From a virus (Duplodnaviria; Caudoviricetes), in the IMG/VR virus record IMGVR_UViG_3300006922_000005: a DNA stretch of 64,000 bases. One strand, 5' to 3'. The notes under the pieces are model-generated. The model was not told the origin of the DNA and did not search any database. It worked only from the letters and a program-made list of their open reading frames with translations. How positions within the stretch are numbered: the first letter of the stretch is position 1; the number at the start of each line of letters is the position of its first letter. Below, one piece after another: positions 3,699 to 30,610 of the stretch. The position numbers and the translations under genes are program-made.

Positions 3699-6092
3699 AT
3701 GCCATATCAAATAGATAAAACAGACGGAACAGTACTAGTAACATTAGCCGACGGAGTTGTAGATAATTCAACAGACTTACAACTTGTAGGTAGAAATGTT
3801 GCAGGCTACGGTGAGCAACAAAATGAAAACTTTGTTAAGTTATTAGAAAACTTTGCAAGAGCAGATACACCACCAAGTAAACCGCAGGTTGGCCAATTAT
3901 GGTTTGATAAAAATGCAGACAAACTTCGTCCAAGTGTGTTTGATGGAGTACATTGGCGTAACCTTTCAATTACACAAGTTTCAGCAACAGAGCCACAAGG
4001 ACAAAAAGAAGGTGACCTATGGTGGGATACTGTAAACAATAAATTATATGTTTTTGTTGCAGACGGTAATCAACACGTATTAGTAGGTCCTGAAAGTATA
4101 TTAGGCTTTGGTAAAACAAAGTGGGAAACAACTAAACTTACAGATACATCAGCAGGTGAACATCCAGTTAGTATTGGATATGTTGATGGTAGTGCATATA
4201 TGGTAATGGCAGATACTGCATTTGAAATTGATCAAACAGTAACACCTTTAACTGGATTTACAAGAATAGGCGAAGGCCTAACTTCTAAAGGAACAAACAT
4301 TGACGGAGTAACATCAGGAACTACAAGATTTTTTGGTACAGCAGGTGATGCAGATAGACTAGGCGGACGTTTAGCAAGTACATGGGCAAATAGAAACGAC
4401 AACGAAATTATTACAGGAACATATAGTTTTCAAAATGATGGTGGTATTACAATAGGTGATACACTTGAATTAAGTTTAAAAGTTATTAATGCTAACGAAC
4501 CAAGTATTTTTGCAGAGTTTGGAGACCAATTAAATTTAGGTGTTAACTATTCAGGTAGTGGATTTGATAAAACAACAATTTACTTAAAAGAAAAAAGTGT
4601 GTTACCTTATGCTAACAACGAAGTTAGTTTAGGATCTCCAAGTAGAAACTTTAGAAACGTATATGCAACAGACATTTATGCAAACTTTATTGGTACACTT
4701 GCAGGATCTATGGTTGGTACAACAACAGGTGCTAACAGAGGTCCACTACAAGATAGTTCAGGAGCGACAGTTATTGATCCAGACACAGGATTATCTTACA
4801 CAATTAACGTTGGTAATTCACAAGCAACAAACGGGTTAACAGTAGTAGATGTTGATGCAACTACAACAGCACCGATTGTACCAACTAGTGCAGGAACACT
4901 TAGAGGTAGATTTGAAGGTTCGTCTGCATTTGTTGATTACGGAGTTTATACTAATCAAAATAATGTATTAGCAGGATCAAACACTTATAACGGTACATCA
5001 GTTTTTAACGGAAGTTCTACGCATACAGCATTAACTTCAACAAACGTAAACTTATCAGTTGGTAGAATTGGTAGAGGAGCAATTACAAGTCCTAATCCAG
5101 ATCCAAACACTACTATTGGAGATTTATTAATTGATAGAGTAACTATTAACGAATCTAAAATACAAGATAGTGATATAAGAGCAGGAACAATTACAAACGG
5201 TACTGTAATTGACGGAGCCGACATTGGCCAAAATGCACCAGCAATACAAGTTAAAGCACAAAAATTTGTTGATGCTGTTGGAGCAGAAGTAACACGTATT
5301 AGTGATGATGGACAATTTTTACAAAACAGTACAACTAACCTTGTTACTGAACGTGCTATTAAAGAATATGTAGATACAACATTCCAGTCAACAGGACAAG
5401 ACATACAGTTTTATCTTGATACTAAAGATATGACAACATCAGATGTTGGAACACAACTTACAAGACTTGCACCACCTGAAAACTTCAAAGAAGGAACTAC
5501 AGCAAGAATTTTAGGTAGTTATTATTATGGCGATTTAGGAACAGATAGTAGCGGACAACCTTTCTTTGTAAAGAAATATGGTACTACTGTTCAAAGAGGT
5601 ATTGGTTATATTGGAGGACGAACTGTTACTAGAGCAATTGGTGCAGTACAAGGATTAATTAATAAAAAATCTGCAACACAAGGTTATGAATTTCAATTAA
5701 GTGCAACAGGAAGCATTACAACTGATACTCAAACACATAATCCAAATACAAATCAAGGTGACTTTACACAAAAATTAGGTAATGGTACTATTGACGGTTG
5801 GTATGTATTTCCAAATGCTCCATTAAACGGAGACCAAGCAGATGAATTTTCAACTGATGCAGTACAAGGTGCAAAAGTAGTTGTAGTAAGAAATGGTCTA
5901 GTAGAAACTTATAGTTCAAGTGACAGTATTTTACAACTAGTAGTTGGCAACGTTACGTTTACTAGAGCGGCGGCTAGTTACTGGAATGGTACAGTTAGCC
6001 TTGCAGGATATGCAGTGGCAGTACAAGGATATGCATTTGATAGAACTTCAAGAACAAGTTCTGCGGCATGGGTATATAGGGGTAATATTTAA
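3699..6092 (+). CDS. Tail fibre protein, paralog 3
   Basis: Same N-terminal anchor (DGVVDNSTDLQLVGRNVAGYGEQQNENFVKLLENFA). LAPP.N...GT.ARIL segment shared with paralog 2. Confidence 0.8.
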   Translation: MPYQIDKTDGTVLVTLADGVVDNSTDLQLVGRNVAGYGEQQNENFVKLLENFARADTPPSKPQVGQLWFDKNADKLRPSVFDGVHWRNLSITQVSATEPQGQKEGDLWWDTVNNKLYVFVADGNQHVLVGPESILGFGKTKWETTKLTDTSAGEHPVSIGYVDGSAYMVMADTAFEIDQTVTPLTGFTRIGEGLTSKGTNIDGVTSGTTRFFGTAGDADRLGGRLASTWANRNDNEIITGTYSFQNDGGITIGDTLELSLKVINANEPSIFAEFGDQLNLGVNYSGSGFDKTTIYLKEKSVLPYANNEVSLGSPSRNFRNVYATDIYANFIGTLAGSMVGTTTGANRGPLQDSSGATVIDPDTGLSYTINVGNSQATNGLTVVDVDATTTAPIVPTSAGTLRGRFEGSSAFVDYGVYTNQNNVLAGSNTYNGTSVFNGSSTHTALTSTNVNLSVGRIGRGAITSPNPDPNTTIGDLLIDRVTINESKIQDSDIRAGTITNGTVIDGADIGQNAPAIQVKAQKFVDAVGAEVTRISDDGQFLQNSTTNLVTERAIKEYVDTTFQSTGQDIQFYLDTKDMTTSDVGTQLTRLAPPENFKEGTTARILGSYYYGDLGTDSSGQPFFVKKYGTTVQRGIGYIGGRTVTRAIGAVQGLINKKSATQGYEFQLSATGSITTDTQTHNPNTNQGDFTQKLGNGTIDGWYVFPNAPLNGDQADEFSTDAVQGAKVVVVRNGLVETYSSSDSILQLVVGNVTFTRAAASYWNGTVSLAGYAVAVQGYAFDRTSRTSSAAWVYRGNI

Positions 6093-6580
6093 TGTATGAA
6101 GTTGTTGATAACTTTATAACAAATGTTGATGGAATTATGGAACTGGTTAAACAACACGAAGCAGAAGGGCGTTTTACTAATAGAGGAATTGGTGGAACAG
6201 ACACTCATGCAACTGTGTATGGTGAAAGTCATTTTTCTAGTCTATATGAAAAAAATATGGATGAGAAATTAGTTGAAACAGTTTGGGAAACTATACCTAA
6301 AGAACGCAAGTGGTGTTCACAGATTGTTGTAAACAAATATAAACCTGGTGATTGGTTAATTAGACATCAAGATAGTGCAGGTGGGTATTGGAAGTTTATG
6401 CTAGTGTTTTTAACACAAGGTAAGCCTCATTTTAAGTATTGGGACAAAGATGAAAAAGAACATTTAGTCCAAGAAGTAAAAGGTGCAATGTTTAAAATGC
6501 CAATTGAAACTTGGCACGAAGTAACAAAAATAGAAAATGACGAAGAACCCAAGTATAGTCTTTGTCTAATATGGGAATAA
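6092..6580 (+). CDS. 2OG-Fe(II) oxygenase superfamily protein
   Basis: VNKY.PGD...RHQD (HxD), distal WHEV His and KYSL strand typical of the DSBH oxygenase fold. Confidence 0.75.
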   Translation: MYEVVDNFITNVDGIMELVKQHEAEGRFTNRGIGGTDTHATVYGESHFSSLYEKNMDEKLVETVWETIPKERKWCSQIVVNKYKPGDWLIRHQDSAGGYWKFMLVFLTQGKPHFKYWDKDEKEHLVQEVKGAMFKMPIETWHEVTKIENDEEPKYSLCLIWE

Positions 6581-6584
6581 GGAT

Positions 6585-7061
6585 ATGGCAAAAGAAAAAT
6601 TTAAATTAATGTTTAATGCCAAAAACGGAACACTCTTAGGACATCTTCCTAAGGGCATGGACACTTTTGGTTTAGATCCTGCAGAAGTAAAAATAAGGAC
6701 TGTACAATATGATCCTGAACAAGAAGTCTTCATAGGAACTTATGCAGATGGAAAAGTTATTAAGATAAGCGATGCAGATGACGGCAAAGCATTTATTGAT
6801 GAAGAGGTATTAAATGCAGGAGTGCAAGATGACATTGCTGAAAAATACCCAATGCATAGACAACTTAATATTATTATTGATATGTTAGATAAGTGTGATT
6901 ATCCTAATACTCCAGAATTTAAGGAAATGGTAGAATATATTAAAGATTTACGTGAAATGAATAAAACACGTAAAGAGCAATATAAATCTAGCGATGCATA
7001 CTTTTTTGCAGATAAAGAACTTTCTAAACTTGATCGCAAGAAACGTATGGGCGAAGCATAA
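6585..7061 (+). CDS. Hypothetical protein, possible tail-fibre-associated/assembly protein
   Basis: Tightly packed between fibre genes; GGA RBS-like site upstream. Confidence 0.5.
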   Translation: MAKEKFKLMFNAKNGTLLGHLPKGMDTFGLDPAEVKIRTVQYDPEQEVFIGTYADGKVIKISDADDGKAFIDEEVLNAGVQDDIAEKYPMHRQLNIIIDMLDKCDYPNTPEFKEMVEYIKDLREMNKTRKEQYKSSDAYFFADKELSKLDRKKRMGEA

Positions 7062-7062
7062 G

Positions 7063-7069
7063 GTAAATA
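7063..7069 (+). promoter_or_regulatory. T4-like late promoter core (GTAAATA)
   Basis: TAAATA core 20 nt upstream of a structural gene; T4 late consensus is TATAAATA. Confidence 0.5.
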
Positions 7070-7088
7070 CTGCAAGTAGAGGAAAAAC

Positions 7089-8837
7089 ATGCCATATATT
7101 ATTAATACATACAACGGACAACAAATTGCAGTAGTACAAGACGGTACTGTAGATAGTACTACAGATATTAAACTTGTAGGTAAAAACTATGCTGGATTTG
7201 GTGAAATCATTAATGAGAACTTTGTACACTTATTGGAAAGTTTCTCAGGTGCTAATCAACCACCTAACCCTTTAGCAGGACAAGTTTGGTATGATAGTGC
7301 TAACCGTGTTATTAAGTTTTATGATGGTAATAGATTTAGAATTGCAGGCGGTGCTGAAATTGGACCAAACCAACCAGTAGGTTTAGCACGTGGAGACCTT
7401 TGGTGGGAAACAGATGGTGAACAACTATATGTTTACAACGGTGAAGATTTTATTCTTGTTGGTCCTGTAAGTACAGGTGGTGAAGGTGTATCACAGGTTA
7501 CTTCAAGAGTAGTAAAAGATGTTAGTGCAAACGACAGAACAATATTAACTTATACAGTTAATGACGCAGTAATGGGTATTACTGCTAAAGACGAATTTAT
7601 ATTAGATAGTTCTAAAAATCCTATTGCTGGATTTAGTTCAATCAAAAAAGGTTTTAACCTAGCAAACGAATCTTCAGTTCCAGGTATACGTTATCACGGA
7701 ACAGCAGTAAATGCAGATAACTTAGGCGGAATTCCAGCGGCACAATATGTACTTAATAGTGGACTACAAAGTTTTGCAGATCAAGTTAAATTTTTAGGTG
7801 ATGAAGGACTAACTGTAGGTGCAGGCGAAGATTTAAAATTACACATCACAAGTGGTGATGTTGGAAACCTTACTAACCAAGTAGGTAATGCAATACAGTT
7901 TCAAGTTAATACAGGAACAGGTGCGGCAGTAGTTGCAAAGTTTAATCAAAATCAATTTTTACCAGCAACAAATAATACAGGATCATTAGGATCAATTAGT
8001 ACACGTTGGGCAAACGTCTATTGTGGAAATATTGATATTGATTCAACAGGAGTATTAACTGGTGACGTAACAGGTAACTTAACAGGTAACAGTGCAGGTA
8101 CACATACTGGAGATGTAGTAGGTAACGTTACTGCAAGTACAGGAACAAGTTCATTTAATAACCTTACTGTAAACGGTACATTAACTGCAACAGTACAAGG
8201 TACATCAGATGTTGCTAACAAATTAGTAGTAGATGCAGGTACAGCAAGAGAAGCAAATACGTTGCTTGTAAATAATAGTATTGTTGCTAGAGATTCAAAC
8301 GGTGATATTAACGTAAACATCTTAAACGGTACTGCAACTAACTCACAGGGATTAAATGGTGCTAGTGCAAGTACTACTGCAACAGCAGGTACTATTGCAC
8401 AAAGAGATGGTAATAAAGATTTAACAGCAAGAAAGTTCTTAGGAACTGCAACCGCGGCACAGTTTGCTGACTTGGCTGAAATATACAAATCAGATTTAGA
8501 TTACGAACCAGGTATAGTTTTAATATTTGGTGGTGATGAAGAAGTTACAACAACTGACAAGTTCTGTGATCATAGAATAGCAGGTATTGTTAGTACTGAA
8601 CCAGCACACTTAATGAATTCAAATGCTGAAGGTGTTGCAGTAGCACTTAGAGGTAGAGTTCCGTGTATGATGGAAGGTCCTACTAAAAAAGGTGACCTGG
8701 TTGTAACAAGTCCAAAAAACGGAATAGCAACTTGCTTATCAGCAGATAGTGCTTTACCTAGTTCAATTTGTATCCTAGGAAGATGCTTAGAAAACAATAA
8801 TGAGCAAGGTATTAGACTAGTAGAAGTTGTAGTTTAA
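7089..8837 (+). CDS. Tail fibre protein, paralog 4, with C-terminal intramolecular-chaperone-like domain
   Basis: Same N-terminal anchor. C-terminal AQFADLAEIY...GIVLIFGGDEEV...VALRGRVPC segment typical of autocleaved chaperone domains of fibres. Confidence 0.75.
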   Translation: MPYIINTYNGQQIAVVQDGTVDSTTDIKLVGKNYAGFGEIINENFVHLLESFSGANQPPNPLAGQVWYDSANRVIKFYDGNRFRIAGGAEIGPNQPVGLARGDLWWETDGEQLYVYNGEDFILVGPVSTGGEGVSQVTSRVVKDVSANDRTILTYTVNDAVMGITAKDEFILDSSKNPIAGFSSIKKGFNLANESSVPGIRYHGTAVNADNLGGIPAAQYVLNSGLQSFADQVKFLGDEGLTVGAGEDLKLHITSGDVGNLTNQVGNAIQFQVNTGTGAAVVAKFNQNQFLPATNNTGSLGSISTRWANVYCGNIDIDSTGVLTGDVTGNLTGNSAGTHTGDVVGNVTASTGTSSFNNLTVNGTLTATVQGTSDVANKLVVDAGTAREANTLLVNNSIVARDSNGDINVNILNGTATNSQGLNGASASTTATAGTIAQRDGNKDLTARKFLGTATAAQFADLAEIYKSDLDYEPGIVLIFGGDEEVTTTDKFCDHRIAGIVSTEPAHLMNSNAEGVAVALRGRVPCMMEGPTKKGDLVVTSPKNGIATCLSADSALPSSICILGRCLENNNEQGIRLVEVVV

Positions 8838-18704: not shown

Positions 18705-19025
18705 TTACATGTGTCTCCTTATTTTATCTAGTTTATCTTCCGGCTTTTCAGGTTTTTCACTTATACCGTCTATGTCCTCATACTTAATATTACTATCAGG
18801 AGCAATAGTTTGTGTGACAACATCTTTGTTTTCTTTATTAAGTTTATCTTTTAAAAAAACAAATGTCTCTATTATAGAGTAAACTACAAAAAAAGTAATA
18901 GTTAACACTAGTAAAATAAATGTATGCAGAAGTTTAGACAATCCAATGAATAAATCTGTTTTACTCCATTCGACTGTTTTGTCTTCTGCGTTAAACCAAA
19001 TAATTTTTAATCTGTCTTTAATCAT
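18705..19025 (-). CDS. Hypothetical membrane protein
   Basis: One long hydrophobic segment; ATGA overlap with queE. Confidence 0.6.
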   Translation of the reverse strand: MIKDRLKIIWFNAEDKTVEWSKTDLFIGLSKLLHTFILLVLTITFFVVYSIIETFVFLKDKLNKENKDVVTQTIAPDSNIKYEDIDGISEKPEKPEDKLDKIRRHM

Positions 19026-19918
19026 GTTCCTATAGCATTGCCGAACAAGTATACATGTACTCTTGCCGCCACGTTATAACCTCTTTTAAATGCCTTTTCT
19101 GCTACCTTACCTGCACCAGAAGTTTGTTCTTCTTCCCTTGCACCTGTAGGCATAATCCATACTGGCCAATCAACACCTGCATCTCTAAACTTTGCAACTG
19201 CTTCTTCCATTTCGTTCCATTCTCTATCTTTATCACCTACAACAAATTTAAGTTGTCCTTTACTACTTACCTTTGCATATTCTGCAACTATTTCAGGCTT
19301 AATTGCTTTCTCAGTCTTTTCACCTGATACTGTAAATAATTTAGGACTACAACTAAAAAATATTTCTGTATCAATACTGTTTGCCCATTCAATAAATTCA
19401 GGACGTAATTTTTGTGTACCATTTGTTTCAAATGTCATGCTACCGGGCAAATTGTCTTGTCTTTTTAATTCGTTATATATTCCTACTACTGCTTGTTGTC
19501 CTGTTATCATTAAAGGTTCACCACCTGTAAAACACAGATGTTGCCGAGTGTTACTTACAGGATGTAAAAACTTTCCTTCTGGGTTACTATCATTCTTTAT
19601 ACAATCTACAATTTTATTAGCAAGTGTACTAGGTGTTTCATACCCCATTAGTTTCTTAAACTTCTTTGCCCAAGTGTAACTACTATCACAACCTTTTTCC
19701 CACACAGGGAGATCTTCAACACGTTTGACACTGTCTACATCAAAGTCTTCAAACGGTAATTCATATGTATTAGGATTAGTAGGATCTAATTGTCCAAATC
19801 CGTTACATTGTAAATTACACAAAAAGAATCTTATCCAAGCAGTAGGAACACCTGTATAATGTCCTTCTCCTTGAATACTATAGAATATTTCAGAGTAATA
19901 ATACTTTTTCTCAGTCAT
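19022..19918 (-). CDS. queE: 7-carboxy-7-deazaguanine synthase (radical SAM), start at 19918
   Basis: YSEIFYSIQGEG..TG.P..WIRF..CNLQC...CDSSY.W, FTGGEP, FETNG, SCSPKL, R.HVYL.GN. AGAGG RBS before MTEKK. Confidence 0.9.
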   Translation of the reverse strand: MTEKKYYYSEIFYSIQGEGHYTGVPTAWIRFFLCNLQCNGFGQLDPTNPNTYELPFEDFDVDSVKRVEDLPVWEKGCDSSYTWAKKFKKLMGYETPSTLANKIVDCIKNDSNPEGKFLHPVSNTRQHLCFTGGEPLMITGQQAVVGIYNELKRQDNLPGSMTFETNGTQKLRPEFIEWANSIDTEIFFSCSPKLFTVSGEKTEKAIKPEIVAEYAKVSSKGQLKFVVGDKDREWNEMEEAVAKFRDAGVDWPVWIMPTGAREEEQTSGAGKVAEKAFKRGYNVAARVHVYLFGNAIGT

Positions 19919-19939
19919 TTGTTTAACCTCTTTCATATA

Positions 19940-19968
19940 ATTATAGTGTGTATTTAGGTTTTTGTCAA
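19940..19968 (-). promoter_or_regulatory. Sigma70 promoter with embedded late-promoter core
   Basis: TTGACA-17-TATAAT; CTAAATA inside the spacer. Confidence 0.75.
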
Positions 19969-20384
19969 CCGTTAATAACATCTTCTATATCCATTTGACT
20001 ATTATCTTTTTTGGAATACTTCTGTTTTTCCGGAATAACACCACGAATTCCGCCTGCTGGATCAATCATATCTCCATCTCTACGAAAAATTAAATGTACA
20101 TGTGGATACATGCAAGTTTGTCCTGCACTCTTACCCATATTAATGCCTACATTATACCCTGTAATGTTGTTGTTACTTGATTTAATATTATCATTGCCCA
20201 TTGAATTAGCAAACTTAAAACATTTTAAAATTGCTTCTTCTGTGTTTACTTTGGGTACTACTAGTGTATGTCCTTCAGTAACAGGATAGATATCATTGTA
20301 GACAACAAACTCACGTGTGTCAATTTCAACGTTAGTCCAAGGTGCTCTACCTTCTGCTTGTGCGTTTTCTAAAGTATCAGTCAT
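19965..20384 (-). CDS. HIT-family hydrolase
   Basis: DIYPVTEGHTLVVPK, YNVGINMG..AGQT..YPHVHLI. Confidence 0.9.
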   Translation of the reverse strand: MTDTLENAQAEGRAPWTNVEIDTREFVVYNDIYPVTEGHTLVVPKVNTEEAILKCFKFANSMGNDNIKSSNNNITGYNVGINMGKSAGQTCMYPHVHLIFRRDGDMIDPAGGIRGVIPEKQKYSKKDNSQMDIEDVING

Positions 20385-21121
20385 TAAAACTCCTGTGTCC
20401 ATACTGCGGCAGTATATCCTTTGCCGTTAGTATCACCGCCACAGTTGTCTAGTTCTTCGCCGTCATAGTAAACTCCTGATACAGTATCTTCACCGTTGGG
20501 CAGTTCATATGATTGTATTCTTAATTTTGTAGGATCAAAGTCACCTATAGTCTCTACTATTCCTTCAAAAAATGTGCCCTTCTCGATTGATAGCATTTGG
20601 ACGATGTGTGTTCCTTTTTCTGGGTACGAATCGTCTTGGGGTTCCATAATTTCAATTTCATAATTAGTGTCTTCACTAATTTTATTAGTCCATTCATTTA
20701 AATCTTCTCCCTCGATAACCTCTCTAATATGTTGTGCAGAATAATCAGCACTGCTAACTTCGTCTACAGTAAGGTAAGCACTGTCTACTGAAACATTGTT
20801 AATATGTTCAAATTCAGTTGGCATTTCAAACCAACTACTACGCCACGAGTTTCCATCTGAGCCTTCACTCATTAAAAAGTCTGCACTTGGCGGAACTTCG
20901 TCAATATTATCAAAATCAAATTCACCTTCTTCAGCATTAAGTGCATAATTACACAAATCACTATCACCGTGTTCTTCTACAATAGGCTTCCAAAAATCAT
21001 ACTGTTCTTGAGTTAATGTTCCATACACATGTTCGCCACCGTATCCGTTAAGTATGATACGATAAAATCTAGGACCTTTAATAGTTTCTAGTGTGTGTTC
21101 TTTTTCTTGTAGCGTTGCCAA
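20384..21121 (-). CDS. Acidic hypothetical protein
   Basis: Long ORF, GAGGA RBS, stop/start overlap. Confidence 0.7.
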   Translation of the reverse strand: MATLQEKEHTLETIKGPRFYRIILNGYGGEHVYGTLTQEQYDFWKPIVEEHGDSDLCNYALNAEEGEFDFDNIDEVPPSADFLMSEGSDGNSWRSSWFEMPTEFEHINNVSVDSAYLTVDEVSSADYSAQHIREVIEGEDLNEWTNKISEDTNYEIEIMEPQDDSYPEKGTHIVQMLSIEKGTFFEGIVETIGDFDPTKLRIQSYELPNGEDTVSGVYYDGEELDNCGGDTNGKGYTAAVWTQEF

Positions 21122-21125
21122 CGTT

Positions 21126-21326
21126 TTATTCCTCGCTGATCTTAAACATAGGATCTACTGTCATACTATCGTGCCAGTCTGTTTGATCCAAGTTAAATTT
21201 ACGTGATGTTGTTTCTTTACGCAACATTCCATCTTTAATACGATATGTAATTAATTCTTGTTTAATTACTCCTGTAGGTTCAGTTTGAAATGCACTTACA
21301 AGTGGTCCGTCAAATTTCTCATTCAT
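21126..21326 (-). CDS. Hypothetical protein
   Basis: Stop/start overlap with clpP. Confidence 0.6.
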   Translation of the reverse strand: MNEKFDGPLVSAFQTEPTGVIKQELITYRIKDGMLRKETTSRKFNLDQTDWHDSMTVDPMFKISEE

Positions 21327-21883
21327 TAGTATAACTCCTCTATTTTATCACATATTTTTAATTTCTTGGCTTCAGTAGCACTTAACCAAACGTCTTGTGG
21401 CGGAAGTAAAATTTCTTTAATTTTAGCCTCTGTCATACCAAGACATTTTTTGTAATGATCTATCATACGTTGTGTGCTTAATTCAAATTCTTTTACACGA
21501 GCATATAACTCATGTTCTTTTCCTTTACTACCCCAACTGTATTGATGTGAAAGGATTGCAGTATTAGGAGTAAGAATACGTTTACCTTTTTTCCCTGCAA
21601 TAAAAATTAAGAACCCACAACTTGCAATAAGTCCTAGTCCTACTGTTTTAATAGGAATATTACTTGCTTTCATAGTATCAATTAATGCAAAGGCGGCATG
21701 AACATCACCACCTGGTGAATTTATAATAATTGTTAATTGTGGTAATGGATTATCGCTTAGGTTATGATTCATTATCCACTTAATTGCTTCTCGACAAGTT
21801 GCATGATTAATTTGATCCATTAAAACATAGATACCGTTTGATTCAATATTTTGTGGTTGTGCTGGTTGTTTTTCTTTAGCCAT
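21326..21883 (-). CDS. clpP: ClpP-family serine protease (start 21883)
   Basis: INSPGG, GLIASCG (Ser), ILSHQ (His), QDVWLSATEA (Asp). AGGAG RBS. Confidence 0.9.
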   Translation of the reverse strand: MAKEKQPAQPQNIESNGIYVLMDQINHATCREAIKWIMNHNLSDNPLPQLTIIINSPGGDVHAAFALIDTMKASNIPIKTVGLGLIASCGFLIFIAGKKGKRILTPNTAILSHQYSWGSKGKEHELYARVKEFELSTQRMIDHYKKCLGMTEAKIKEILLPPQDVWLSATEAKKLKICDKIEELY

Positions 21884-22449
21884 TAGTATTCTCCTACGTT
21901 TTCCCAAGGATATACTAACCAAACATCCTCTTCTGCTTTGTTAACTTCATGACAGTAATAAGATACTTGATCAAACTCACTTGCTAAATTTTCTGTAAGT
22001 GTAGCAAACTTAACGTTGTCTCCCCAAATTTGGTTCCATAAAGGACTGTCTGGTAAACAACAATTTTGCCAATCATTTTTAATCCAATTAAATGTTGCAC
22101 CTGTATCATTAATATCATCTACAATAAGAATTTTTCTTTCTTGTTCGGGGTTATTTTTAAATTGTCCCATTTCAGCATTGTACGAACCTTCGTCGTCATA
22201 GCCATATGCATCACTAGCCATCCAAGTCATGCTATCGCCAGTCTTTCCTGATTCGCCATCACGTAAACTTACTTTAAATGATTCGCAACGTATGCCTGTC
22301 ATGTTACTAATAATAGTAGCAGGTACGTTACCGCCTCTTGTAATTCCTACAATGTAATCAGGTTTCCAATTTTCTTTGTACATTTGGTTTACAATGCTAA
22401 CACACATTTTTTCTATGTCTGACCAACTGTAATAATGTTTTTTAATCAT
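21883..22449 (-). CDS. Purine phosphoribosyltransferase (Gpt/Hpt-like type I PRTase)
   Basis: IVGITRGG, PRPP motif ILIVDDINDTGATF, WLVYPWE. Confidence 0.88.
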   Translation of the reverse strand: MIKKHYYSWSDIEKMCVSIVNQMYKENWKPDYIVGITRGGNVPATIISNMTGIRCESFKVSLRDGESGKTGDSMTWMASDAYGYDDEGSYNAEMGQFKNNPEQERKILIVDDINDTGATFNWIKNDWQNCCLPDSPLWNQIWGDNVKFATLTENLASEFDQVSYYCHEVNKAEEDVWLVYPWENVGEY

Positions 22450-22604: not shown

Positions 22605-22893
22605 TAGGATTGATACCTGCCACATCAGTTACATTTGCCCATCTAAAACTACGCCAACCTTTAGCATTAATATCCCATACTATTTGTGTTTCTTCACTAA
22701 TAGAACGGACTTTCTTTTGACTAGCAGTATCATCTTTAGTTGCCGGAGGAATAACACCTTCTTCAAGTGTACATGTCATTACTCTTTTGTCACCGTTTAT
22801 TTTTGTAAATGTTACAATAACTTCACCTTGTTTAAGTTTTGTTATTGTTGACTCTTTTAATTCTTCATATGTTTCCATGTTAACCTCGTTCAT
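22597..22893 (-). CDS. WYL_2/DUF2693-like SH3-fold phage protein
   Basis: VTFTK.NGDKRVM.CTL...VWD....GWRSFR; alternative start 22878. Confidence 0.75.
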   Translation of the reverse strand: MNEVNMETYEELKESTITKLKQGEVIVTFTKINGDKRVMTCTLEEGVIPPATKDDTASQKKVRSISEETQIVWDINAKGWRSFRWANVTDVAGINPNA

Positions 22894-23356
22894 TTAAATA
22901 TTCCTCATTATGAACCCATCTGTATCCAGTATGTTTTACCCAACGCATAAAGCCCCATTCTTTTTGTTTCTTTCCCATAAAGAATATGCTTGTGCATGGT
23001 AGTTCGTTTCCGTCTTTGTCTTTAGCAAGTTCTAACCAATGTAAGTCACTTGCCTTTCTAAATCTAATATGTCCAGGACCACGCCAATGTGCAGTTGCAC
23101 CACATACGTGTCCTTCTTTTGCAAATACTGGAACATACTCCCAATACCCGCCTTTTAAAATAATAGCACCCCAACTCCATGGATGATCATGTAACACAGG
23201 TTCATCACTTACAAGAACTTTATGAAGTGTAATATTAAATGGAAAGTTTTTTCTTTCTTTTAAAAATAGATAATATCTAATCAAATAAGGTACTTTTCCT
23301 GAGCGATCAGTAATCACTCTACGTCTACCTAGTTTGTCCATTATCTTACTAAACAT
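22880..23356 (-). CDS. Cupin-like metal-binding protein
   Basis: LHK...D.P.LHDHPW..., GGYWEY, distal LHWLEL. Confidence 0.65.
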   Translation of the reverse strand: MFSKIMDKLGRRRVITDRSGKVPYLIRYYLFLKERKNFPFNITLHKVLVSDEPVLHDHPWSWGAIILKGGYWEYVPVFAKEGHVCGATAHWRGPGHIRFRKASDLHWLELAKDKDGNELPCTSIFFMGKKQKEWGFMRWVKHTGYRWVHNEEYLNERG

Positions 23357-23648: not shown

Positions 23649-23673
23649 AAAAGTGGGGGATTTCTCCCCCACT
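23649..23673 (-). terminator. Hairpin terminator after yhhQ
   Basis: AGTGGGGGA-GAAA-TCCCCCACT, short T tract. Confidence 0.7.
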
Positions 23674-23685
23674 ATACTAAAACAA

Positions 23686-24345
23686 TTAACTTGCTGACTT
23701 ATTATCAGTAAGTTTACCGTTAAGGTATTTTAACAAAATACCGTATGCTGGCAGGAATACTACCAAGCCTACGACAATCTTAGTCAGTGTGTTGTTCTGT
23801 GCAACAATGTGCCAGTTAGCACCAATCCAAGACATGTTACCTTCTGCGTCCAACGATCCTGCAAACGCCACATAAAAGAATGAATATGTGTCAATTATAT
23901 TTGCAACAATAGTTGAAAGTGCAGGAGCCGCCCACCATGCGTTTGAGCGTTCTCTAATTGCTTGGAAAACATATACGTCAAGCATTGTACCAATTGCGTA
24001 TGCGGTACCACTTGCTAAACCTACTCTGTATGCGTGTGGATCATCTAGTGCCATTAGCACAAGTACAGATGCTATAATAGCAGGAATAATTGCCATTGCT
24101 ACAACGGCTCTTCCTGCTTCTTTACCAACCATACGTACTGTTAGGTCAGTTGCTACAACAACGATCGGAAATGTAAAAGCCGCCGCCGCTAGTGGAAATG
24201 ATCCAAACAAGGGCAATTCAGCACCTGGAAATAAATCAAATCTAATCGTAACTAGATAGTTTGACACAGCAATAACAAGCGTGTGTAAAATAACTAGTTT
24301 AGTTACAAGTGCCCTATCGACACCGTGTAAAAGTTTTGTGAACAT
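23686..24345 (-). CDS. yhhQ: Queuosine-precursor (preQ0/preQ1) transporter, YhhQ/VUT family
   Basis: HTLVIAVSNYLV, AFTFP.VV.ATDLTVR..G...R, YA.GTMLDVYVF, N.IDT..F; about six TM segments. Confidence 0.88.
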   Translation of the reverse strand: MFTKLLHGVDRALVTKLVILHTLVIAVSNYLVTIRFDLFPGAELPLFGSFPLAAAAFTFPIVVVATDLTVRMVGKEAGRAVVAMAIIPAIIASVLVLMALDDPHAYRVGLASGTAYAIGTMLDVYVFQAIRERSNAWWAAPALSTIVANIIDTYSFFYVAFAGSLDAEGNMSWIGANWHIVAQNNTLTKIVVGLVVFLPAYGILLKYLNGKLTDNKSAS

Positions 24346-24411: not shown

Positions 24412-25101
24412 TTACGAACCTGCCGCAAATTGCTGTTGCAGTTTAACGTTATCGATAAATTCTTTTTTAGTTGCAGGATCATCTTTAAACGCACCACGTA
24501 ATACTGTTGTTTGTGTTAATGAACTATGGGCTCTAATACCCCTGTTCTCACAACAACCGTGTGTTGCTTGTACATATACACCTACGTGTTCACTACCTGT
24601 TTGTTCTTGTATTGCATTAGCAATCATAACATTCAGTTCTTCTTGTAGTGTACCTCTTGTAGCACACCATTGTGCAATACGAGTGTACTTACTTAAACCT
24701 AATAGTTTAGGTCCTGCAATGATACCAATGTATGCTACACCTTTTACTGTCTGGTGATGATGCGAACATAAACTTGTAAGTTCACTTCGCACTACTAACA
24801 TACCTTCATAACCGCCTTCAATATAGTTAGGAAATGCACTTGGATTAGGCATTGGATCATAACGTCCTGCCATAATCTCATTAATGTACATCTTAGCCAT
24901 ACGTCTTGCAGTATCCATACTGTTAGGATCTGTTTTAGTATCAATTAATAATTTTTGTAATACATTTTCAAAAGCAGGTACTGCTTCATCAATTAACTGT
25001 TGCTTATCACCTTCTTCAATGTAATCAGCAATGTTGTCGTTAGCCCAATATCTTACGCCTTGTTGTTCTAACTTTGCTTTTATTTCTTCGCTTTTACTCA
25101 T
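24412..25101 (-). CDS. folE: GTP cyclohydrolase I
   Basis: TARRMAKMY, SLCSHH, GLSK..RI, LQEEL, H.C...RG. Confidence 0.95.
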   Translation of the reverse strand: MSKSEEIKAKLEQQGVRYWANDNIADYIEEGDKQQLIDEAVPAFENVLQKLLIDTKTDPNSMDTARRMAKMYINEIMAGRYDPMPNPSAFPNYIEGGYEGMLVVRSELTSLCSHHHQTVKGVAYIGIIAGPKLLGLSKYTRIAQWCATRGTLQEELNVMIANAIQEQTGSEHVGVYVQATHGCCENRGIRAHSSLTQTTVLRGAFKDDPATKKEFIDNVKLQQQFAAGS

Positions 25102-25139: not shown

Positions 25140-25168
25140 ATTATAACTTCTCAAGTAAGTTTTTACAA
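25140..25168 (-). promoter_or_regulatory. Sigma70-type promoter for folE, followed by a 5' hairpin at 25119-25134
   Basis: TTGTAA-17-TATAAT; AGGCA-ATCCAC-TGCCT stem-loop just after the predicted start site. Confidence 0.6.
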
Positions 25169-26238
25169 CTAAAATAGTTGTCATTTAATTGAGTAGCAAG
25201 TTTATTTAGGTCAATAAGGTAGTTGTCATAATTTTCCATATAATCAATTATACGTGCAACTATCTCATCTTTGTGTTCTTTATACGAAACAAATGATTCT
25301 GTCCATTCGCTTGGGTATAAGAACTTGCCTGTATTGTCCATTTCAGTGTAACTTAAACGATCTGGAACCATAGGCAAGGTGCCAACCAAAGCACCTTCGT
25401 ACCAACTAATACCTAGTGTTTCTTGTAGGTTAGCACTAAAGACAAGTTTTGCTTCTCCTAGTGCGTTGTAGTATTCTTGTTTTGAATAATTTTTATCCAT
25501 ACAAATTTCAAATTCATATTGTGTAAGTGTGTCTTTTAAATCTAAAAATATCTCAGGTTGTTTTTCTGGAGCAACTCTGTGCGGAAACAAAATTAAATTA
25601 CGTTTTGTCATACCTTTAAATGCTTCTAATTCTTTGCGTACATATTCCATAGGCCAACCGCAACGTACAATCTTTCCGTTATTGAATCTATTGTTGTATG
25701 CTTCGTTATACATGTCTGTAGGTTCGTTGTTGCCATCTAAAAGTAATTCATCAAAGAACAACTTTACATGGAAGTCTGTTGCAAAGTAATTATGATCATA
25801 ACTGTGAAAGAAACTTTTCTCTGCATGTCTTACCCACGGTGCATTATTAATAAGTCTACCTAAAAAGTCTTGTGGGTCGTATGAGCCAGCATGCCAAAGT
25901 GCATGTGTTATAACTTTAATGCCAAGTAGTTCACTCATATACTTAATATTAGTGATACCAGGATGCCAAGCATCTGTAAAGATAATATGATCACCTTCGT
26001 GTACTTCGCCTGTTGTAAATGCTCTACTAATTTGTTCTATTTGATTTGCTTTGTAAATATTAGTACCACCAAAGTTCAAAAAAGCACCTGGAGTTGTAGC
26101 ATTAGGAATATCTGTTGGACCTTCTACAACAAATACTTCGTGATTGTTCTTACGTAGTAATGCAGGAAAGAAAGTTTTCCATTGTTTAGTGTAGCGTGTT
26201 TCTACACTCTCTATATCTATTAACCATATTCTAGCCAT
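25141..26238 (-). CDS. GT-B glycosyltransferase, GTDC1/QTMAN (DUF3524 + GT4)-like
   Basis: EX7E motif ETLGISWYE; ILFPHRVAPEKQPEIF and SKQEYYNAL..A.LV.S motifs. Confidence 0.8.
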   Translation of the reverse strand: MARIWLIDIESVETRYTKQWKTFFPALLRKNNHEVFVVEGPTDIPNATTPGAFLNFGGTNIYKANQIEQISRAFTTGEVHEGDHIIFTDAWHPGITNIKYMSELLGIKVITHALWHAGSYDPQDFLGRLINNAPWVRHAEKSFFHSYDHNYFATDFHVKLFFDELLLDGNNEPTDMYNEAYNNRFNNGKIVRCGWPMEYVRKELEAFKGMTKRNLILFPHRVAPEKQPEIFLDLKDTLTQYEFEICMDKNYSKQEYYNALGEAKLVFSANLQETLGISWYEGALVGTLPMVPDRLSYTEMDNTGKFLYPSEWTESFVSYKEHKDEIVARIIDYMENYDNYLIDLNKLATQLNDNYFSCKNLLEKL

Positions 26239-26458
26239 TTGTTAATCCTAATATTGTTAGTATTCTTAAATCGTTATATTCAAATATTATAGCATCATCC
26301 ATACTATCTGTATAGCCTTGATCTTGCCAAATAAAATCACGACCGTAAACATAACCATGATTGCCTAGTGTATTACTCACTTTGGCGACTGCGTCTACGG
26401 TCGTATAATTTGCATTTAATGCACCACCTTCTACTGAATTTCCAAATTTATCAGTCAA
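26231..26458 (-). CDS. Hypothetical protein (TTG start at 26458)
   Basis: GAGG RBS after stop of 26469..26690; avoids the 180-nt overlap of the tracked 139-aa ORF. Confidence 0.55.
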   Translation of the reverse strand: MTDKFGNSVEGGALNANYTTVDAVAKVSNTLGNHGYVYGRDFIWQDQGYTDSMDDAIIFEYNDLRILTILGLTNG

Positions 26459-26468
26459 GTATGGACCT

Positions 26469-26690
26469 CTATCGCTTTGGTCCTCGGTTCTTAAAGTTAC
26501 GATTCTTGTGAACACGTTGTTTTGCTTTCCGTGGATTGTTACGACCTTCGTATGCCCTCCACTCTCTTGTTTCCCTTTTGTAAAGGAACTTTTCGTTAAA
26601 TTTAAACCCTTCAAATCGACAAAAGTCGCGGAAGGAATCGAGATCATCAAAGATTTTTACAATCTCTGGACGTTGTGCAAGGTAAGACAA
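26469..26690 (-). CDS. Small basic hypothetical protein
   Basis: GGAGA RBS; RPEIVKIFDDLDSFRDFCRFE. Confidence 0.7.
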   Translation of the reverse strand: MSYLAQRPEIVKIFDDLDSFRDFCRFEGFKFNEKFLYKRETREWRAYEGRNNPRKAKQRVHKNRNFKNRGPKR

Positions 26691-26704: not shown

Positions 26705-27160
26705 TTACTTTGCATAGTACTCAATGTGTGCGCCGTTTTCTCCATCTTCACTTACGTCAATATGGACTTCACGACCTGGGTGTTTTGCGATAATTTGTTC
26801 ATATAAATCATCACTCATCATTTCACAACTCTTATAATCTAGTTCAAGTGTTTTTTCTGCGTAAAGTTTTTCTAACCAACGTTTAAATTGAATAAACTCT
26901 ATATCTCTATCGTTGTGTGTTACAGTAATACCTACTTTAAAATGAAATATGTGTCTGTGGGGATATCCCAAAAAACTAACATCATATTCATCACCTGTAG
27001 CAAGTGCTGGATCGTCCAGTGCCGCAGGATATTTGTGAATACCTTCTTTTCTAAAGGTTACCCATATCATTCTTTTTGCGTTTTCCATAATTACCTTTTC
27101 GTTTTCTTCTCTTGTTCTTCTTAACATATAATCATAATAAGGTTCTCTTTGATTATTCAT
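26705..27160 (-). CDS. dpdL: T-fold QueD paralog with LxxxHRHxF motif (DpdL-type, predicted CDG decarboxylase); alternative start 27088
   Basis: FRKEGIHKYP, LGYPHRHIFHF, DRDIEF, KSCEMM, VSEDGENGA; lacks the QueD CxxxHGH. Confidence 0.65.
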   Translation of the reverse strand: MNNQREPYYDYMLRRTREENEKVIMENAKRMIWVTFRKEGIHKYPAALDDPALATGDEYDVSFLGYPHRHIFHFKVGITVTHNDRDIEFIQFKRWLEKLYAEKTLELDYKSCEMMSDDLYEQIIAKHPGREVHIDVSEDGENGAHIEYYAK

Positions 27161-27162
27161 TT

Positions 27163-27191
27163 ATAATACATTCTTTCTATACAGTTGTCAA
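27163..27191 (-). promoter_or_regulatory. Sigma70-type promoter overlapping the aminotransferase stop
   Basis: TTGACA-17-TATTAT; -10 only 2 nt from ATG 27160, which favours the 27088 start. Confidence 0.65.
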
Positions 27192-28435
27192 TTACTTTTC
27201 CAGTTATTTTGGTCCCATATTTTACCATTATTAACAAGGGTTACAAACTTTTGAAATGTGTGTTCAATGTAGTCTGCTTCTTGTTTATTTAGGTCGTAGA
27301 AACTCAAGAACCAAATTCTTGTGTGTTCTGAGTTCCATAATTTATGACTGTTTAAAAATGTTGATAACATTTTACATTGATCATTGTCATAATTGTTCAC
27401 AAAGTTACAGTAAAGAATACTGTTGCTGTGTGTTACTTCAAATGTATCTACTTGTTTTAGTATGTTTGCAATACGTTCAACAAACGGTACAACATCATTT
27501 ATTACTTTTGTACCAATATCTTCTTCAATACATTTGTTAATTGTTTCTATTGTTGCTCTAGCACCTGTATTTGATTGTGCCCTTGTATTACCTACTGCAA
27601 TAGGAAAGTTATCCCATAGGCTAGGATCAAATGCACTTATTGTATCGTGAATGTTTTTATGTAATACGGTAATAGCCAAAGTTCCAAACCCACCTGTAAG
27701 TGCTTTTCCAAAACAGATCATATCAGGGTTTAAGTTTTTATGTATACTATGTGAAAAATGTCCCATACGCCACATGCCTGTAAGTATTTCATCTACTATT
27801 AACAAGCAACCTGTTTGTTTTCTTGCAGTTTGTATTTTTTCTAATACTTCGTCACTTACTTCACTAATACCATTATACCAATTTACAGTATCTAACATAA
27901 TACCTGCAAGGGTATCTTTGTGTTTTGTAAACATAGCATCAAAGTTATCATCAAAGAAGTCTACAAAATCAATATGTGGCCAATTTCCTAAAATCCAATC
28001 TTGATCATCTGTCATTTGCCAACCAGTAATACTACCTGAATGAAAACTTCCTTTTCTTACAAGTACTGTACGTCTGCGAGATTGTTCTTTTTTAGTCCAA
28101 TATCTCCATGCAATCTTTAATGAATTGTCTACACTATCACTGCCCGTAAGTGCAGGTATAAATCCTGTGTATGTGTTAGGTAAAACTTTTTTAAGAGTAT
28201 CTTCTAGTTCATACCATACAGTACTTTTAGTTGTCCAATCATCGTTTGGAAACTGAAAACTTGTTTCTGCTACTTTGGCTTGTATTTCAGGCTGTGTAAA
28301 TCCAAATATATTACATCCTGTTCCGCCACTTAGGTCATACCATTGCTGATTTTCACCTACTAAGAAGTGTCCATTCATTTCTTTAACTTTAGGGTGTTCG
28401 TCTTTGGGCTGAGAAAAAGGGTGTATTAATTTCAT
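27188..28435 (-). CDS. PLP-dependent class-III aminotransferase
   Basis: YDLSGG, TGSDSVDNSLK, SFHSGS, LIVDEILTG..R.G, PDM...GKALTGG (catalytic Lys present). Confidence 0.88.
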   Translation of the reverse strand: MKLIHPFSQPKDEHPKVKEMNGHFLVGENQQWYDLSGGTGCNIFGFTQPEIQAKVAETSFQFPNDDWTTKSTVWYELEDTLKKVLPNTYTGFIPALTGSDSVDNSLKIAWRYWTKKEQSRRRTVLVRKGSFHSGSITGWQMTDDQDWILGNWPHIDFVDFFDDNFDAMFTKHKDTLAGIMLDTVNWYNGISEVSDEVLEKIQTARKQTGCLLIVDEILTGMWRMGHFSHSIHKNLNPDMICFGKALTGGFGTLAITVLHKNIHDTISAFDPSLWDNFPIAVGNTRAQSNTGARATIETINKCIEEDIGTKVINDVVPFVERIANILKQVDTFEVTHSNSILYCNFVNNYDNDQCKMLSTFLNSHKLWNSEHTRIWFLSFYDLNKQEADYIEHTFQKFVTLVNNGKIWDQNNWKSN

Positions 28436-28439
28436 TGCG

Positions 28440-28955
28440 TTACTCTACTGAATTATCATTTTCGTATTTAGACCAATCAGTAAACTTATCTCTTGGCTGT
28501 AAATCTCTAGCATAATGTACCCAAACACCTACGTTAGATGCTTTAAAGTCTTTATCATCAATCTTAATACAAGCATTATAATTTAAATGATCGATATACG
28601 GAAGTTTAACACTAATCATACTAATAAATTTATTATATTCGTTATATCCTGCTTCGATAACATATTCATGATATCTTACATCATAATCTAGTGTAACCAT
28701 ATAACTTTCTTTAAGTAACCCTTCTACAAGTTCGTCCCAAGCATGACTTGTACCGCCATCAATATTAAAACTTTGATTAGCACCTAAGTAAATATGATCT
28801 ACTGCATGTTTCTTTGCTTGTTTTAATACTTCTTGTAATGGTCTAGGCCCTACTACAAATAACGTGTGTTCTTCAAATGCTGGAGTTTTTTCTACTTCGT
28901 AACCTGTGAAGTAAACAACATCGTCCTTAACACCATCATCATAATCACGCTTCAC
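28440..28955 (-). CDS. Conserved hypothetical protein in deazaguanine operon
   Basis: FTGYEVEKT...TLFVVG...HIYLGANQSF, alternating beta/alpha pattern; co-transcribed with dpdA. Confidence 0.6.
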   Translation of the reverse strand: MKRDYDDGVKDDVVYFTGYEVEKTPAFEEHTLFVVGPRPLQEVLKQAKKHAVDHIYLGANQSFNIDGGTSHAWDELVEGLLKESYMVTLDYDVRYHEYVIEAGYNEYNKFISMISVKLPYIDHLNYNACIKIDDKDFKASNVGVWVHYARDLQPRDKFTDWSKYENDNSVE

Positions 28956-29161: not shown

Positions 29162-30610
29162 TTATACCTCCTCGAATAGGTTTGTGTATTGTGTACTAGC
29201 ATTAACTGTCTTCTTACCAGTAGCACCTCTAGTTCCAATAATAGACATCCAAAACCTTGAAAATTCTTCTATTATCGCATTTGCTTCGTCTCTGTTTGAA
29301 GTTGCAAATATTGCTTCCACAACATCTTTAAAAAATAACCTGTCAAAGGACTCTTCGACAAGCATGTTTGGAATGATTCCATTGTCGTATTGTCTGTTTG
29401 CTTCTTGTACTGCATTGATATGACTCCATACATTATGACCCATTTGGATCGCATAAGAAAAACTATCCCATGATGTCTTTCCTTCTTTACCTATTTTATT
29501 TAGATCACCTGGAGCATAAATGCAAACATCTTTGGCTTTTAAGTTTTGTGTAAGTGGTGAATCTTTAAAACTTCCATGTTTACCTTCACGTACAAATGCT
29601 TGTGCAAAAGGCGTAGTATCTGTAGCAAGTGCTTTATCATCTATGCTAGGTACCATTCTGTATACCCATTTACTTCTATCTTGTGTTTCAAGTTCACAAT
29701 AAATTTGACCATTTGCTGTGGCTAAGAACGGACTAGCACAATCAAATGTAATCATAAAGTTTTCATTGTGATACTTGCGAACTGCTCTTTGTATATCTGT
29801 TAATAATGTTGCCCACTCTAATTTACTAGTACCCAAAAAGTGCATAACATCATGTTTGCCCTTTTCAAGTAATCCATCAAAGCGTAATGCAACTAAACGT
29901 TTTAATACTAGATGTACATCACACATGTTCTGTCCACCCATCGACCAACCATTAAAATGATTTTCATACTTTTTAGGATCACAGTAATCTTTCATTTGTT
30001 GATACCAATCTTCTGCATCAGCATGATTCTCGCCTTGTAATACATTTAAGAATTTACAAGCACCGCTTCTGTGTTTCATAAAGTAGTCGTTGTTAATACG
30101 TGTAGCATTAACGGCATCTTGATAGTTGTCAATACCTGTTGCTTTTGCACCTGCTGGTGAACGTGCTACCCAAGCCGGAATATCAAGTATCATACCATAG
30201 TCCATGTAAGCGTCCATCCACGCAAGTACTTGCTCACGTTTCTTTTGTGCTTTAGGACAATTAGGATCTTTCCAATCACCTTCCCACACACCTTTACCTA
30301 TCTGGAAACCACCTGAGTCACCTAACATCCAACTATTGTTACGATCTCTATCTCGTACCATATCTTCTTTAGGTGCATCTTTATTAATATCTAGTTCGGC
30401 ATGTCCTGCGGAATATAATGACCAATGATAGTTAAACAGTCCTTCTTTCTTGTTTAACCAATTCATACTTTCCATACTAGGATACGGAATACGACTCTTA
30501 TCAACGTATTCTTCTCTGCGTTGCTTACCTATAAAGGTAGCATAGAAACCACTCAACGCTGGTAAAAACGTTGCGTAGTCTTTTTGTTCTGTTGTTAAGT
30601 CCGTATTCAT
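29162..30610 (-). CDS. dpdA: 7-deazaguanine DNA transglycosylase (TGT fold, DpdA family, probably DpdA2-like)
   Basis: Catalytic DSGGFQ, MILD, LNVLQG, GWSMGG, HFLG, FDCASP, terminal HN. No CxCxxC zinc site of tRNA TGT. Directly downstream of polB and clamp. Confidence 0.8.
   Translation of the reverse strand: MNTDLTTEQKDYATFLPALSGFYATFIGKQRREEYVDKSRIPYPSMESMNWLNKKEGLFNYHWSLYSAGHAELDINKDAPKEDMVRDRDRNNSWMLGDSGGFQIGKGVWEGDWKDPNCPKAQKKREQVLAWMDAYMDYGMILDIPAWVARSPAGAKATGIDNYQDAVNATRINNDYFMKHRSGACKFLNVLQGENHADAEDWYQQMKDYCDPKKYENHFNGWSMGGQNMCDVHLVLKRLVALRFDGLLEKGKHDVMHFLGTSKLEWATLLTDIQRAVRKYHNENFMITFDCASPFLATANGQIYCELETQDRSKWVYRMVPSIDDKALATDTTPFAQAFVREGKHGSFKDSPLTQNLKAKDVCIYAPGDLNKIGKEGKTSWDSFSYAIQMGHNVWSHINAVQEANRQYDNGIIPNMLVEESFDRLFFKDVVEAIFATSNRDEANAIIEEFSRFWMSIIGTRGATGKKTVNASTQYTNLFEEV

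Follow-up and report, generated by a model that had tools for sequence, protein, structure and literature searches.

A QTMAN-related glycosyltransferase linked to deazaguanine genes in phages: a candidate for adding sugar to 7-deazaguanine in DNA

Why would a phage keep a glycosyltransferase gene among the genes with which it makes 7-deazaguanine? The question is raised by a stretch of 64,000 nucleotides of virus DNA (Duplodnaviria; Caudoviricetes; IMG/VR record IMGVR_UViG_3300006922_000005), referred to here in its full length as the window, in which the open reading frame (ORF) at 25141–26238 on the minus strand encodes a 365-aa glycosyltransferase (GT) inside a deazaguanine gene block. All window features given below lie on the same strand. 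To our knowledge, the substituents of all eight known 7-deazaguanine modifications of DNA are small, and DNA glycosylation is known only on pyrimidines. We propose, with a probability of roughly 0.55, that the GT is a tailoring enzyme of a deazaguanine module that lacks QueC, and that it adds a sugar to deazaguanine, most likely when the base is already in DNA. We infer the acceptor, the timing (DNA or free base), the attachment atom and the donor. We regard it as probable that these phages carry a previously undescribed deazaguanine decorated with a sugar. A preliminary description of the locus had known of no glycosylated deazaguanine in DNA, and our literature search, with most subscription journals outside its coverage, also found no paper on one.

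The preliminary description had placed the GT in a deazaguanine cluster, and four genes of the window bear this out. Only 39 nt separate the 3′ end of the GT gene from folE (24412–25101; Pfam GTP_cyclohydroI, E = 8e-37), which encodes GTP cyclohydrolase I, the enzyme of the first step to 7-deazaguanines. On the other side of the GT, 26705–27160 encodes DpdL, a 151-aa T-fold-class paralog of QueD and predicted decarboxylase of 7-carboxy-7-deazaguanine (CDG). It matches phrog_17812, is 31% identical to the DpdL of phage phiST, and contains LGYPHRHIF, which fits the published DpdL signature LxxxHRHxF (PMC10516641). A 482-aa protein (29162–30610) has the hallmarks LGDSGGFQ and FDCASP of the tRNA guanine transglycosylase (TGT) family. 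We classify it by sequence as a DpdA3-like DNA guanine transglycosylase because it aligns with the DpdA group of phages ACP17, X1, BUCT-ZZ01, BCSR5 and PAC2 at 99.9% probability in hhalign; an Atlas search also points to TGT/DpdA, a direct profile comparison with bacterial TGT gives a weak match, and the Pfam TGT family is unmatched. The fourth gene (19022–19981) encodes a QueE-like radical S-adenosylmethionine (SAM) CDG synthase, recognized by weak NCBIfam QueE matches and by homology to the annotated QueE of PAC2, ACP17 and Phosso.

The same association is found in other phages. The GT was detected by tblastn in 23 phage records, and GT, DpdL and QueE are co-located within a few genes in all seven divergent lineages, that is, in the clade of the window and in the six others that were inspected: Sinorhizobium phage Phosso, the Wroclawviruses PA5oct/PAC2, Acidovorax phage ACP17, Xanthomonas phages X1/BUDD, Burkholderia phage BCSR5 and the T4-like Synechococcus cyanophage BUCT-ZZ01. 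Five of these six also have FolE in that stretch. The phyletic linkage that the preliminary description had proposed as a check is thus present, and it is kept despite differing gene orders and GT identities down to 23%. The wider clade of the window is represented by 80 IMG/VR contigs, many of which end early. Their backbone reads polB, clamp, DpdA3, 171-aa protein, DpdL, GT, a variable section, FolE, cupin, phosphoribosyltransferase, HIT protein and QueE, with DpdL present in 77 of the 80 loci, DpdA3 in 62, FolE in 60 and QueE in 57. As judged by these sequence comparisons, the tie between the GT and deazaguanine DNA-modification genes is far beyond chance.

The closest described system is that of phiST, where DpdL and DpdA3 were defined and where unsubstituted deoxy-7-deazaguanosine (dDG) fully replaces deoxyguanosine (Cui et al. 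2023, PMC10516641). As in the GT phages, phiST has FolE, QueD, QueE, DpdL and a DpdA3-type transglycosylase beside its polymerase genes, and no QueC. It has no GT homolog, whereas the window and the six other lineages have the GT in addition, often together with nucleotide-sugar enzymes. Further phages with DpdL and no GT are RHph_I1_18, Bakedbeans, Ahp1, D479 and MA9V-3, and together with the phiST group they are interleaved with the GT-bearing lineages by DpdL identity. The GT is by this phyletic pattern an optional gene, with gain-and-loss behavior. The existence of GT-less DpdL phages and the plain dDG of phiST fit the notion that the GT decorates DNA on top of dDG. Attempts to reconstitute dDG with the DpdL and DpdA of phiST or ACP17 failed, and other enzymes are perhaps needed (PMC10516641). 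In the GT-less Vibrio phage Bakedbeans, DpdL forms the C-terminal domain of a longer protein of 383 aa (5254–6405 of the locus), preceded by an N-terminal extension of roughly 250 aa.

The slot between the GT and folE is hypervariable among the 80 related contigs, and much of its content is related to sugars. A UDP-glucose/GDP-mannose dehydrogenase occupies it in 27 of the 80, a DegT sugar aminotransferase in 15 and a nucleoside diphosphate (NDP)-sugar epimerase/dehydratase in 5. Zinc alcohol dehydrogenase-like genes (23/80) and 2-oxoglutarate oxygenases (13/80) are found there as well, along with radical-SAM and B12-radical-SAM enzymes and several uncharacterized proteins. Other lineages carry comparable genes: an epimerase fragment in the PAC2 cluster, a PIG-L-like de-N-acetylase two genes upstream of the GT in BCSR5 (5815–6522 of the locus), and a second GT (Glyco_trans_1_4) in BUCT-ZZ01 (4010–5353 of the locus). 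The second GT of BUCT-ZZ01 hints at a disaccharide, and the BCSR5 deacetylase at an adduct converted from N-acetylglucosamine to glucosamine.

The GT gene itself is real and widespread. It starts with ATG, and clustering of its homologs yields over 8000 clusters at 90% identity and, at 50%, 1141 representatives. Its cluster neighbors in the Atlas are 95–100% viral, and a single-protein scan of 185,579 prokaryote genomes found no close copy. The strings ILFPHRVAPEKQPEIF, YSKQEYYNALGEAKLVFSANLQETLGISWYEG and LPMVPDRLSYTEM are all found in the translation, in agreement with the preliminary description, which had reported a GT-B enzyme directly upstream of folE and quoted its motifs. An AlphaFold2 model built on 60 diverse homologs has a predicted local distance difference test score (pLDDT) of 95.2 and a predicted template modeling score of 0.91, and shows the two Rossmann-like domains of a GT-B fold. 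Over residues 1–365 the model aligns in VIA-align at Z = 21–25 with about 50 structures of families GT4, GT5 and GT20; BshA, MshA and sucrose-phosphate synthase (GT4) are the best matches at Z = 24–25, and glycogen synthase is also among the generic GT4-type matches in the 21–25 range. The E-x7-E motif is intact as E273-x7-E281. E281 is invariant among 60 sequences of the GT family, and E273, R221 and K226 each occur in at least 90% of them; 45 of 60 family members match Glycos_transf_1 (PF00534). Because of the model, these conserved residues and the Glycos_transf_1 matches, we assign the GT to the retaining-type GT-B enzymes of the GT4 clan and predict that its intact donor site uses a nucleotide-sugar donor.

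Which member of this clan the GT resembles most is less obvious from routine searches. Pfam, PHROGs and NCBIfam assigned no family to the single GT protein, phmmer found no match in the PDB, and a profile search of the PDB returned only weak GT4 matches. The preliminary description had likened the enzyme to QTMAN/GTDC1 and suggested profile and Foldseek comparisons. Foldseek against Swiss-Prot, AFDB clusters and the PDB gave, among the matches listed, generic GT4 enzymes only and no GTDC1, and in the Atlas shape search bacterial QTMAN_N clusters appeared at a template modeling (TM) score of 0.74, tied with other GT4 clusters. On routine family and fold searches alone the claimed likeness to QTMAN would fall; a direct profile test reversed that outcome.

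In that test, 32 QTMAN_N (PF12038) proteins from Bacteroidota genomes, a tool-derived set used in place of the human GTDC1 sequence, were compared with 29 Glyco_transf_4 control proteins from the same genomes. A hidden Markov model of the phage GT family scored 55–71 bits for 31 of the 32 QTMAN proteins and 25.5 bits for the remaining one, which is truncated, compared with at most 16 bits for the controls. The hhalign comparison of the phage GT family with the QTMAN alignment gave 99.6% probability (E = 2e-24, score 180, columns 2–338), whereas the generic GT4 control alignment scored 83, half as much. Full-length profile probabilities of 99.6–99.9%, the GT-B/GT4 architecture and the length (365 aa in the phage GT, 365–400 aa in QTMAN) are alike, as are the motifs (P/N)HR...K.PE.F, E-x7-E and, after it, PL(V/L)P(D/N)RL.Y.E. 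The likeness resides mainly in the C-terminal, donor-binding domain, which alone aligns with QTMAN at 99.5% (E = 3e-23, score 143 vs. 64 for generic GT4) and has the motifs characteristic of QTMAN (HRW..DK.PE.F and, after E-x7-E, P.RL.YPE). In a three-group tree, which does not resolve the relative closeness of the groups, the phage GTs form their own clade with 100/98 support and are not nested in QTMAN. On this evidence the GT belongs to a large virus-specific family of which QTMAN/GTDC1 are the nearest relatives (a sister family), it is overall closer in sequence to QTMAN than to other GT4 enzymes, and its family is a specific relative of QTMAN/GTDC1, with a partial kinship that lies mainly in the donor domain. 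The phage family differs in being viral and in being placed in a DNA-modification operon. BshA and MshA, among the best structural matches (Z about 24), are by comparison only 9–13% identical in sequence; in BCSR5 and PhiXhv-15 the GT has a PIG-L/BshB-like deacetylase as its partner, an arrangement known from thiol biosynthesis, yet thiol-pathway genes are absent beside the phage GT.

In Pfam terms, proteins of the QTMAN family combine QTMAN_N with Glycos_transf_1. Of the 401 Bacteroidota genomes sampled, 102 carried QTMAN_N genes, frequently two paralogs, and at two loci mutL adjoins the gene. No queuosine genes were seen in the genomic context of the bacterial QTMAN_N genes inspected, and we know of no bacterium that mannosylates queuosine.

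Several observations weigh against the proposed role of the GT, and the first concerns the domain expected to read the acceptor. Aligned alone, the N-terminal domain reaches only 63% probability to QTMAN, with a score of 36 compared with 29 for generic GT4. The GT does not match Pfam QTMAN_N, nor is QTMAN_N among the 25 families most often matched by 60 members of the GT family. The preliminary description had noted co-linear N-terminal halves; the co-linearity is present in the full-length alignment, and taken separately the halves are weakly similar. The resemblance to QTMAN thus holds for the donor domain and is marginal in the acceptor domain, which appears from these alignments to have diverged beyond recognition. 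Since the likeness is mostly in the donor-binding domain, it says little about the acceptor, and homology alone does not name it.

The QTMAN kinship also raises the possibility that the GT glycosylates queuosine, or another 7-deazaguanosine, in the tRNA of the host or the phage and so tunes translation, with only ancestry and neighborhood shared with the DNA pathway. QTMAN mannosylates queuosine-34 of tRNA-Asp from GDP-mannose, and the characterized member of the QTMAN/GTDC1 family acts on a 7-deazaguanine nucleoside within a nucleic acid. The 99.6% hhalign match is to this family, and queuosine offers hydroxyl acceptors, whereas 7-deazaguanine (DG) offers none. The genomic setting argues otherwise. 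The window contains no tRNA genes. The GT-bearing genomes have no QueC, and the cyclopentenediol of queuosine is beyond the reach of a pathway that lacks it; Pfam scans of the window ORFs gave no QueA or QueG, although no search was aimed at these two. The domain that would read tRNA is not QTMAN_N-like, the GT is tightly adjacent to the DNA enzymes DpdL and DpdA3 in seven lineages, and the diversity of nucleotide-sugar genes in the slot fits a DNA coat shaped by an arms race better than a tRNA mark. We consider a role in tRNA very unlikely.

A second group of observations concerns the genomic linkage. A large share of the synteny count stems from a single related clade, and a distant GT subgroup (PhiXhv-15/Ep032) lacks a neighboring DpdL and is accompanied by GlmS and a BshB-like deacetylase. 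It follows from the latter that the GT family is not exclusively tied to deazaguanine, and the PhiXhv-15-type subgroup may use a different acceptor. In Xanthomonas phage PhiXhv-15 the GT/GlmS/deacetylase genes are at 4669–7903 of the locus, and a FolE-like gene is more than 100 kb away. Such relatives, with GlmS and a deacetylase and without DpdL, are what would be expected if the acceptor were generally unrelated to deazaguanine (a hydroxylated pyrimidine in DNA, a protein, an envelope glycan) and the placement of the GT in the early replication block were incidental. Annotators at JGI labeled homologs of the GT as ‘cell wall biosynthesis’ glycosyltransferases, and phage GT-B enzymes glycosylate 5-hydroxymethylcytosine, 5-hydroxymethyluracil and 5-hydroxycytosine (PMC13326640). 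The adjacency to DpdL and DpdA, however, persists through rearranged gene orders and low GT identity, the family is almost entirely viral in Atlas clusters, and the prokaryote genomes yielded no close copy. A pyrimidine route is also hard to find: ThyA-family genes are absent from three of five complete GT-bearing genomes (ACP17, X1 and BUCT-ZZ01), and the window has ThyX and no ThyA homolog. An acceptor unrelated to deazaguanine accordingly seems to us quite improbable for the GT of the window.

The known pyrimidine systems are instructive in this respect. They include alpha- and beta-glucosyl-5-hydroxymethylcytosine in T4 and arabinosyl-5-hydroxycytosine in RB69 and DLP3. The description of glycosylated 5-hydroxycytosine dates from 2026, and this modification depends on a ThyA homolog (PMC13326640). 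The module proposed here is like those of T4, RB69 and DLP3 in the late action of a GT-B enzyme, co-encoded nucleotide-sugar genes, a sugar that varies between lineages and an anti-restriction role. It differs in that their acceptors are pyrimidines, with the hydroxyl supplied by a ThyA homolog, whereas the partner genes in the window make a purine analog; the GT families differ as well.

The third difficulty is chemical. QueC is absent from all five complete GT-bearing genomes, and the base in these phages is for that reason, judging by gene content, derived from CDG or DG. The expected base, DG, has no hydroxyl to glycosylate. Attachment of the sugar would call for a bond to carbon or nitrogen, esterification of CDG, or an extra hydroxylation step. 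A third partner conserved in all lineages, which might supply a hydroxyl, was looked for and not found. Within the clade of the window, the 158-aa protein at 22880–23356 has invariant cupin-like metal motifs (HDHPW...PGH...H) and weak Cupin_2 matches (E about 1); to go by these motifs it is probably a cupin metalloenzyme, and as a candidate oxygenase it could create a hydroxyl on the base. It is present in 55–60 of the 80 related loci and has no homolog in the other GT-bearing lineages. Finally, the GT family is mostly acidic (pI about 5–6) and does not look like a typical DNA binder.

An acidic enzyme would be less surprising if the GT acted before insertion, on the free deazaguanine base (CDG, DG or a derivative) or a nucleotide of it, and DpdA3 or a polymerase then inserted the glycosylated base. 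The top structural neighbors (BshA, MshA, LmbT and sucrose-phosphate synthase) use small-molecule acceptors, and TGT-family enzymes are generally known to accept bulky 7-substituents such as queuine. Two recurrent genes of the block hint at chemistry at the nucleotide level: a xanthine/guanine-type phosphoribosyltransferase (21883–22449), found in 42 of the 80 loci and also in the PAC2 and BUCT-ZZ01 clusters, and a HIT-family nucleotide hydrolase/transferase (19965–20402), found in 26 of the 80. The structural ranks among GT4 enzymes are, however, ties (Z = 21–25). There are phages with very similar DpdL and DpdA that do without a GT, which makes a late optional step the simpler explanation, and the known phage DNA glycosylations (PMC13326640) and QTMAN all act on the polymer. 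Glycosylation before insertion is in our view unlikely, if worth keeping in mind.

We therefore return to glycosylation in DNA, for which the following pathway can be envisaged. FolE, QueD (probably encoded outside the window) and QueE would produce CDG, which DpdL would convert to DG, in line with the published prediction. The DpdA3-like transglycosylase would exchange guanine in phage DNA for the deazaguanine base, and the guanine released in this way could be salvaged to GMP by the phosphoribosyltransferase and so feed FolE. The GT would then add a lineage-specific sugar to deazaguanine as a late, optional step. The resulting adduct would be bulky, lie in the major groove and protect the DNA against nucleases and glycosylases that recognize plain deazaguanine. 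Late glycosylation at the DNA level is suggested by the conserved adjacency, the lineage-varying sugar genes and the gain and loss of the GT; it is also suggested by the lack of a pyrimidine route, by host defenses directed at dDG, and by the nearest characterized family, whose target is a deazaguanine within a polynucleotide. Many DNA glycosylases encoded in Vibrio integrons act against a dDG phage (bioRxiv 10.1101/2025.10.29.685425), and such enzymes give a selective reason to cap dDG.

QueD, needed for this pathway, is probably encoded outside the 64-kb window, in which no CxxxHGH motif of queD was found, because a PTPS/QueD gene is present in all five complete GT-bearing genomes and often lies far from the cluster. 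No QueC match was obtained among the window ORFs scanned against Pfam.

The window as a whole looks like part of a large phage genome. Its G+C content is 33–38%, nearly all of its genes are on the minus strand, and it has phage-typical genes for a tail-collar protein, a family-B polymerase, clamp, clamp loader, ThyX, PhoH, ClpB, ClpP and DnaJ; the ClpB-like disaggregase is encoded at 47108–49381, DnaJ at 49898–50758 and the ClpP protease at 21326–21922. Read along the minus strand, the genes follow one another as polB, clamp, the 482-aa protein, a 97-aa ORF, a 171-aa protein, an aminotransferase, the 151-aa protein, a 139-aa ORF, GT, folE and YhhQ/Vut_1. From dpdA3 to yhhQ all genes point the same way and are spaced by −77 to 66 nt; directly after yhhQ, a hairpin that resembles a terminator (23652–23673; 9-bp stem followed by a T run) likely marks the end of the transcription unit. 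No enrichment of promoter-like sites was found. The 139-aa ORF (26231–26650), for which no homologs were found, has a TTG start and overlaps the start of the GT gene by 8 nt, and its coding status is uncertain.

The 171-aa protein (28440–28955), located between dpdA3 and dpdL, is conserved in 69–70 of the 80 related loci and has a homolog in ACP17 (E = 3e-24). Its model (pLDDT 86) has no clear fold match, with QueE barrels as the nearest named shape (TM 0.60). The Fe–S cysteine motif is absent, and the protein may, on the basis of this model, be a degenerate, QueE-like substrate-binding protein. Family profiles of the 171-aa, 158-aa and DpdA3-like proteins searched against the PDB were uninformative. 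The class-III (BioA/omega-type) pyridoxal phosphate aminotransferase (27188–28435; Pfam E = 1e-28), a possible tailoring enzyme, and the YhhQ/Vut_1 transporter of the queuosine-precursor importer family (23686–24345; Pfam E = 2e-20) are found in none of the 80 related loci. These lineage-specific additions may alter the final base or permit precursor salvage.

These results lead us to consider how far the proposal extends beyond the window. We see about even odds that a glycosylated 7-deazaguanine takes the place of guanine in abundant aquatic phages and in cultured ones, PA5oct, ACP17 and Phosso among them; this would be the first sugar-bearing purine analog in DNA. If so, the GT would come from the same stock as the queuosine mannosyltransferase, and the hypervariable slot would diversify the glycan between lineages. 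The linkage would be chemically new for GT4 enzymes, whether the sugar is bound glycosidically to C7 or to nitrogen, as an acyl glycoside to CDG, or through an ether bond to a hydroxylated deazaguanine. The DNA of PA5oct resists several restriction enzymes at sites that contain G, a pattern that points to modified guanine (PMC12191111), and a sugar-bearing deazaguanine, if real, would explain the modified guanine of PA5oct-type phages, which are candidates for therapy.

The GT family is uncharacterized and very large, and several of its carriers are in culture. Its predicted product would be a new kind of base decoration within a known DNA-modification system, and DNA that contains it may resist the enzymes of standard sequencing-library preparation as well as restriction tools. 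If the proposal is true, the QTMAN family gains a second, DNA-directed branch, and glycosylated deazaguanine joins two themes of phage biology, the modification of DNA by 7-deazaguanines and the glycosylation of DNA. It would also add a new layer to the arms race between phages and their hosts, with the sugar capping the base against glycosylases specific for dDG and nucleases of the END type.

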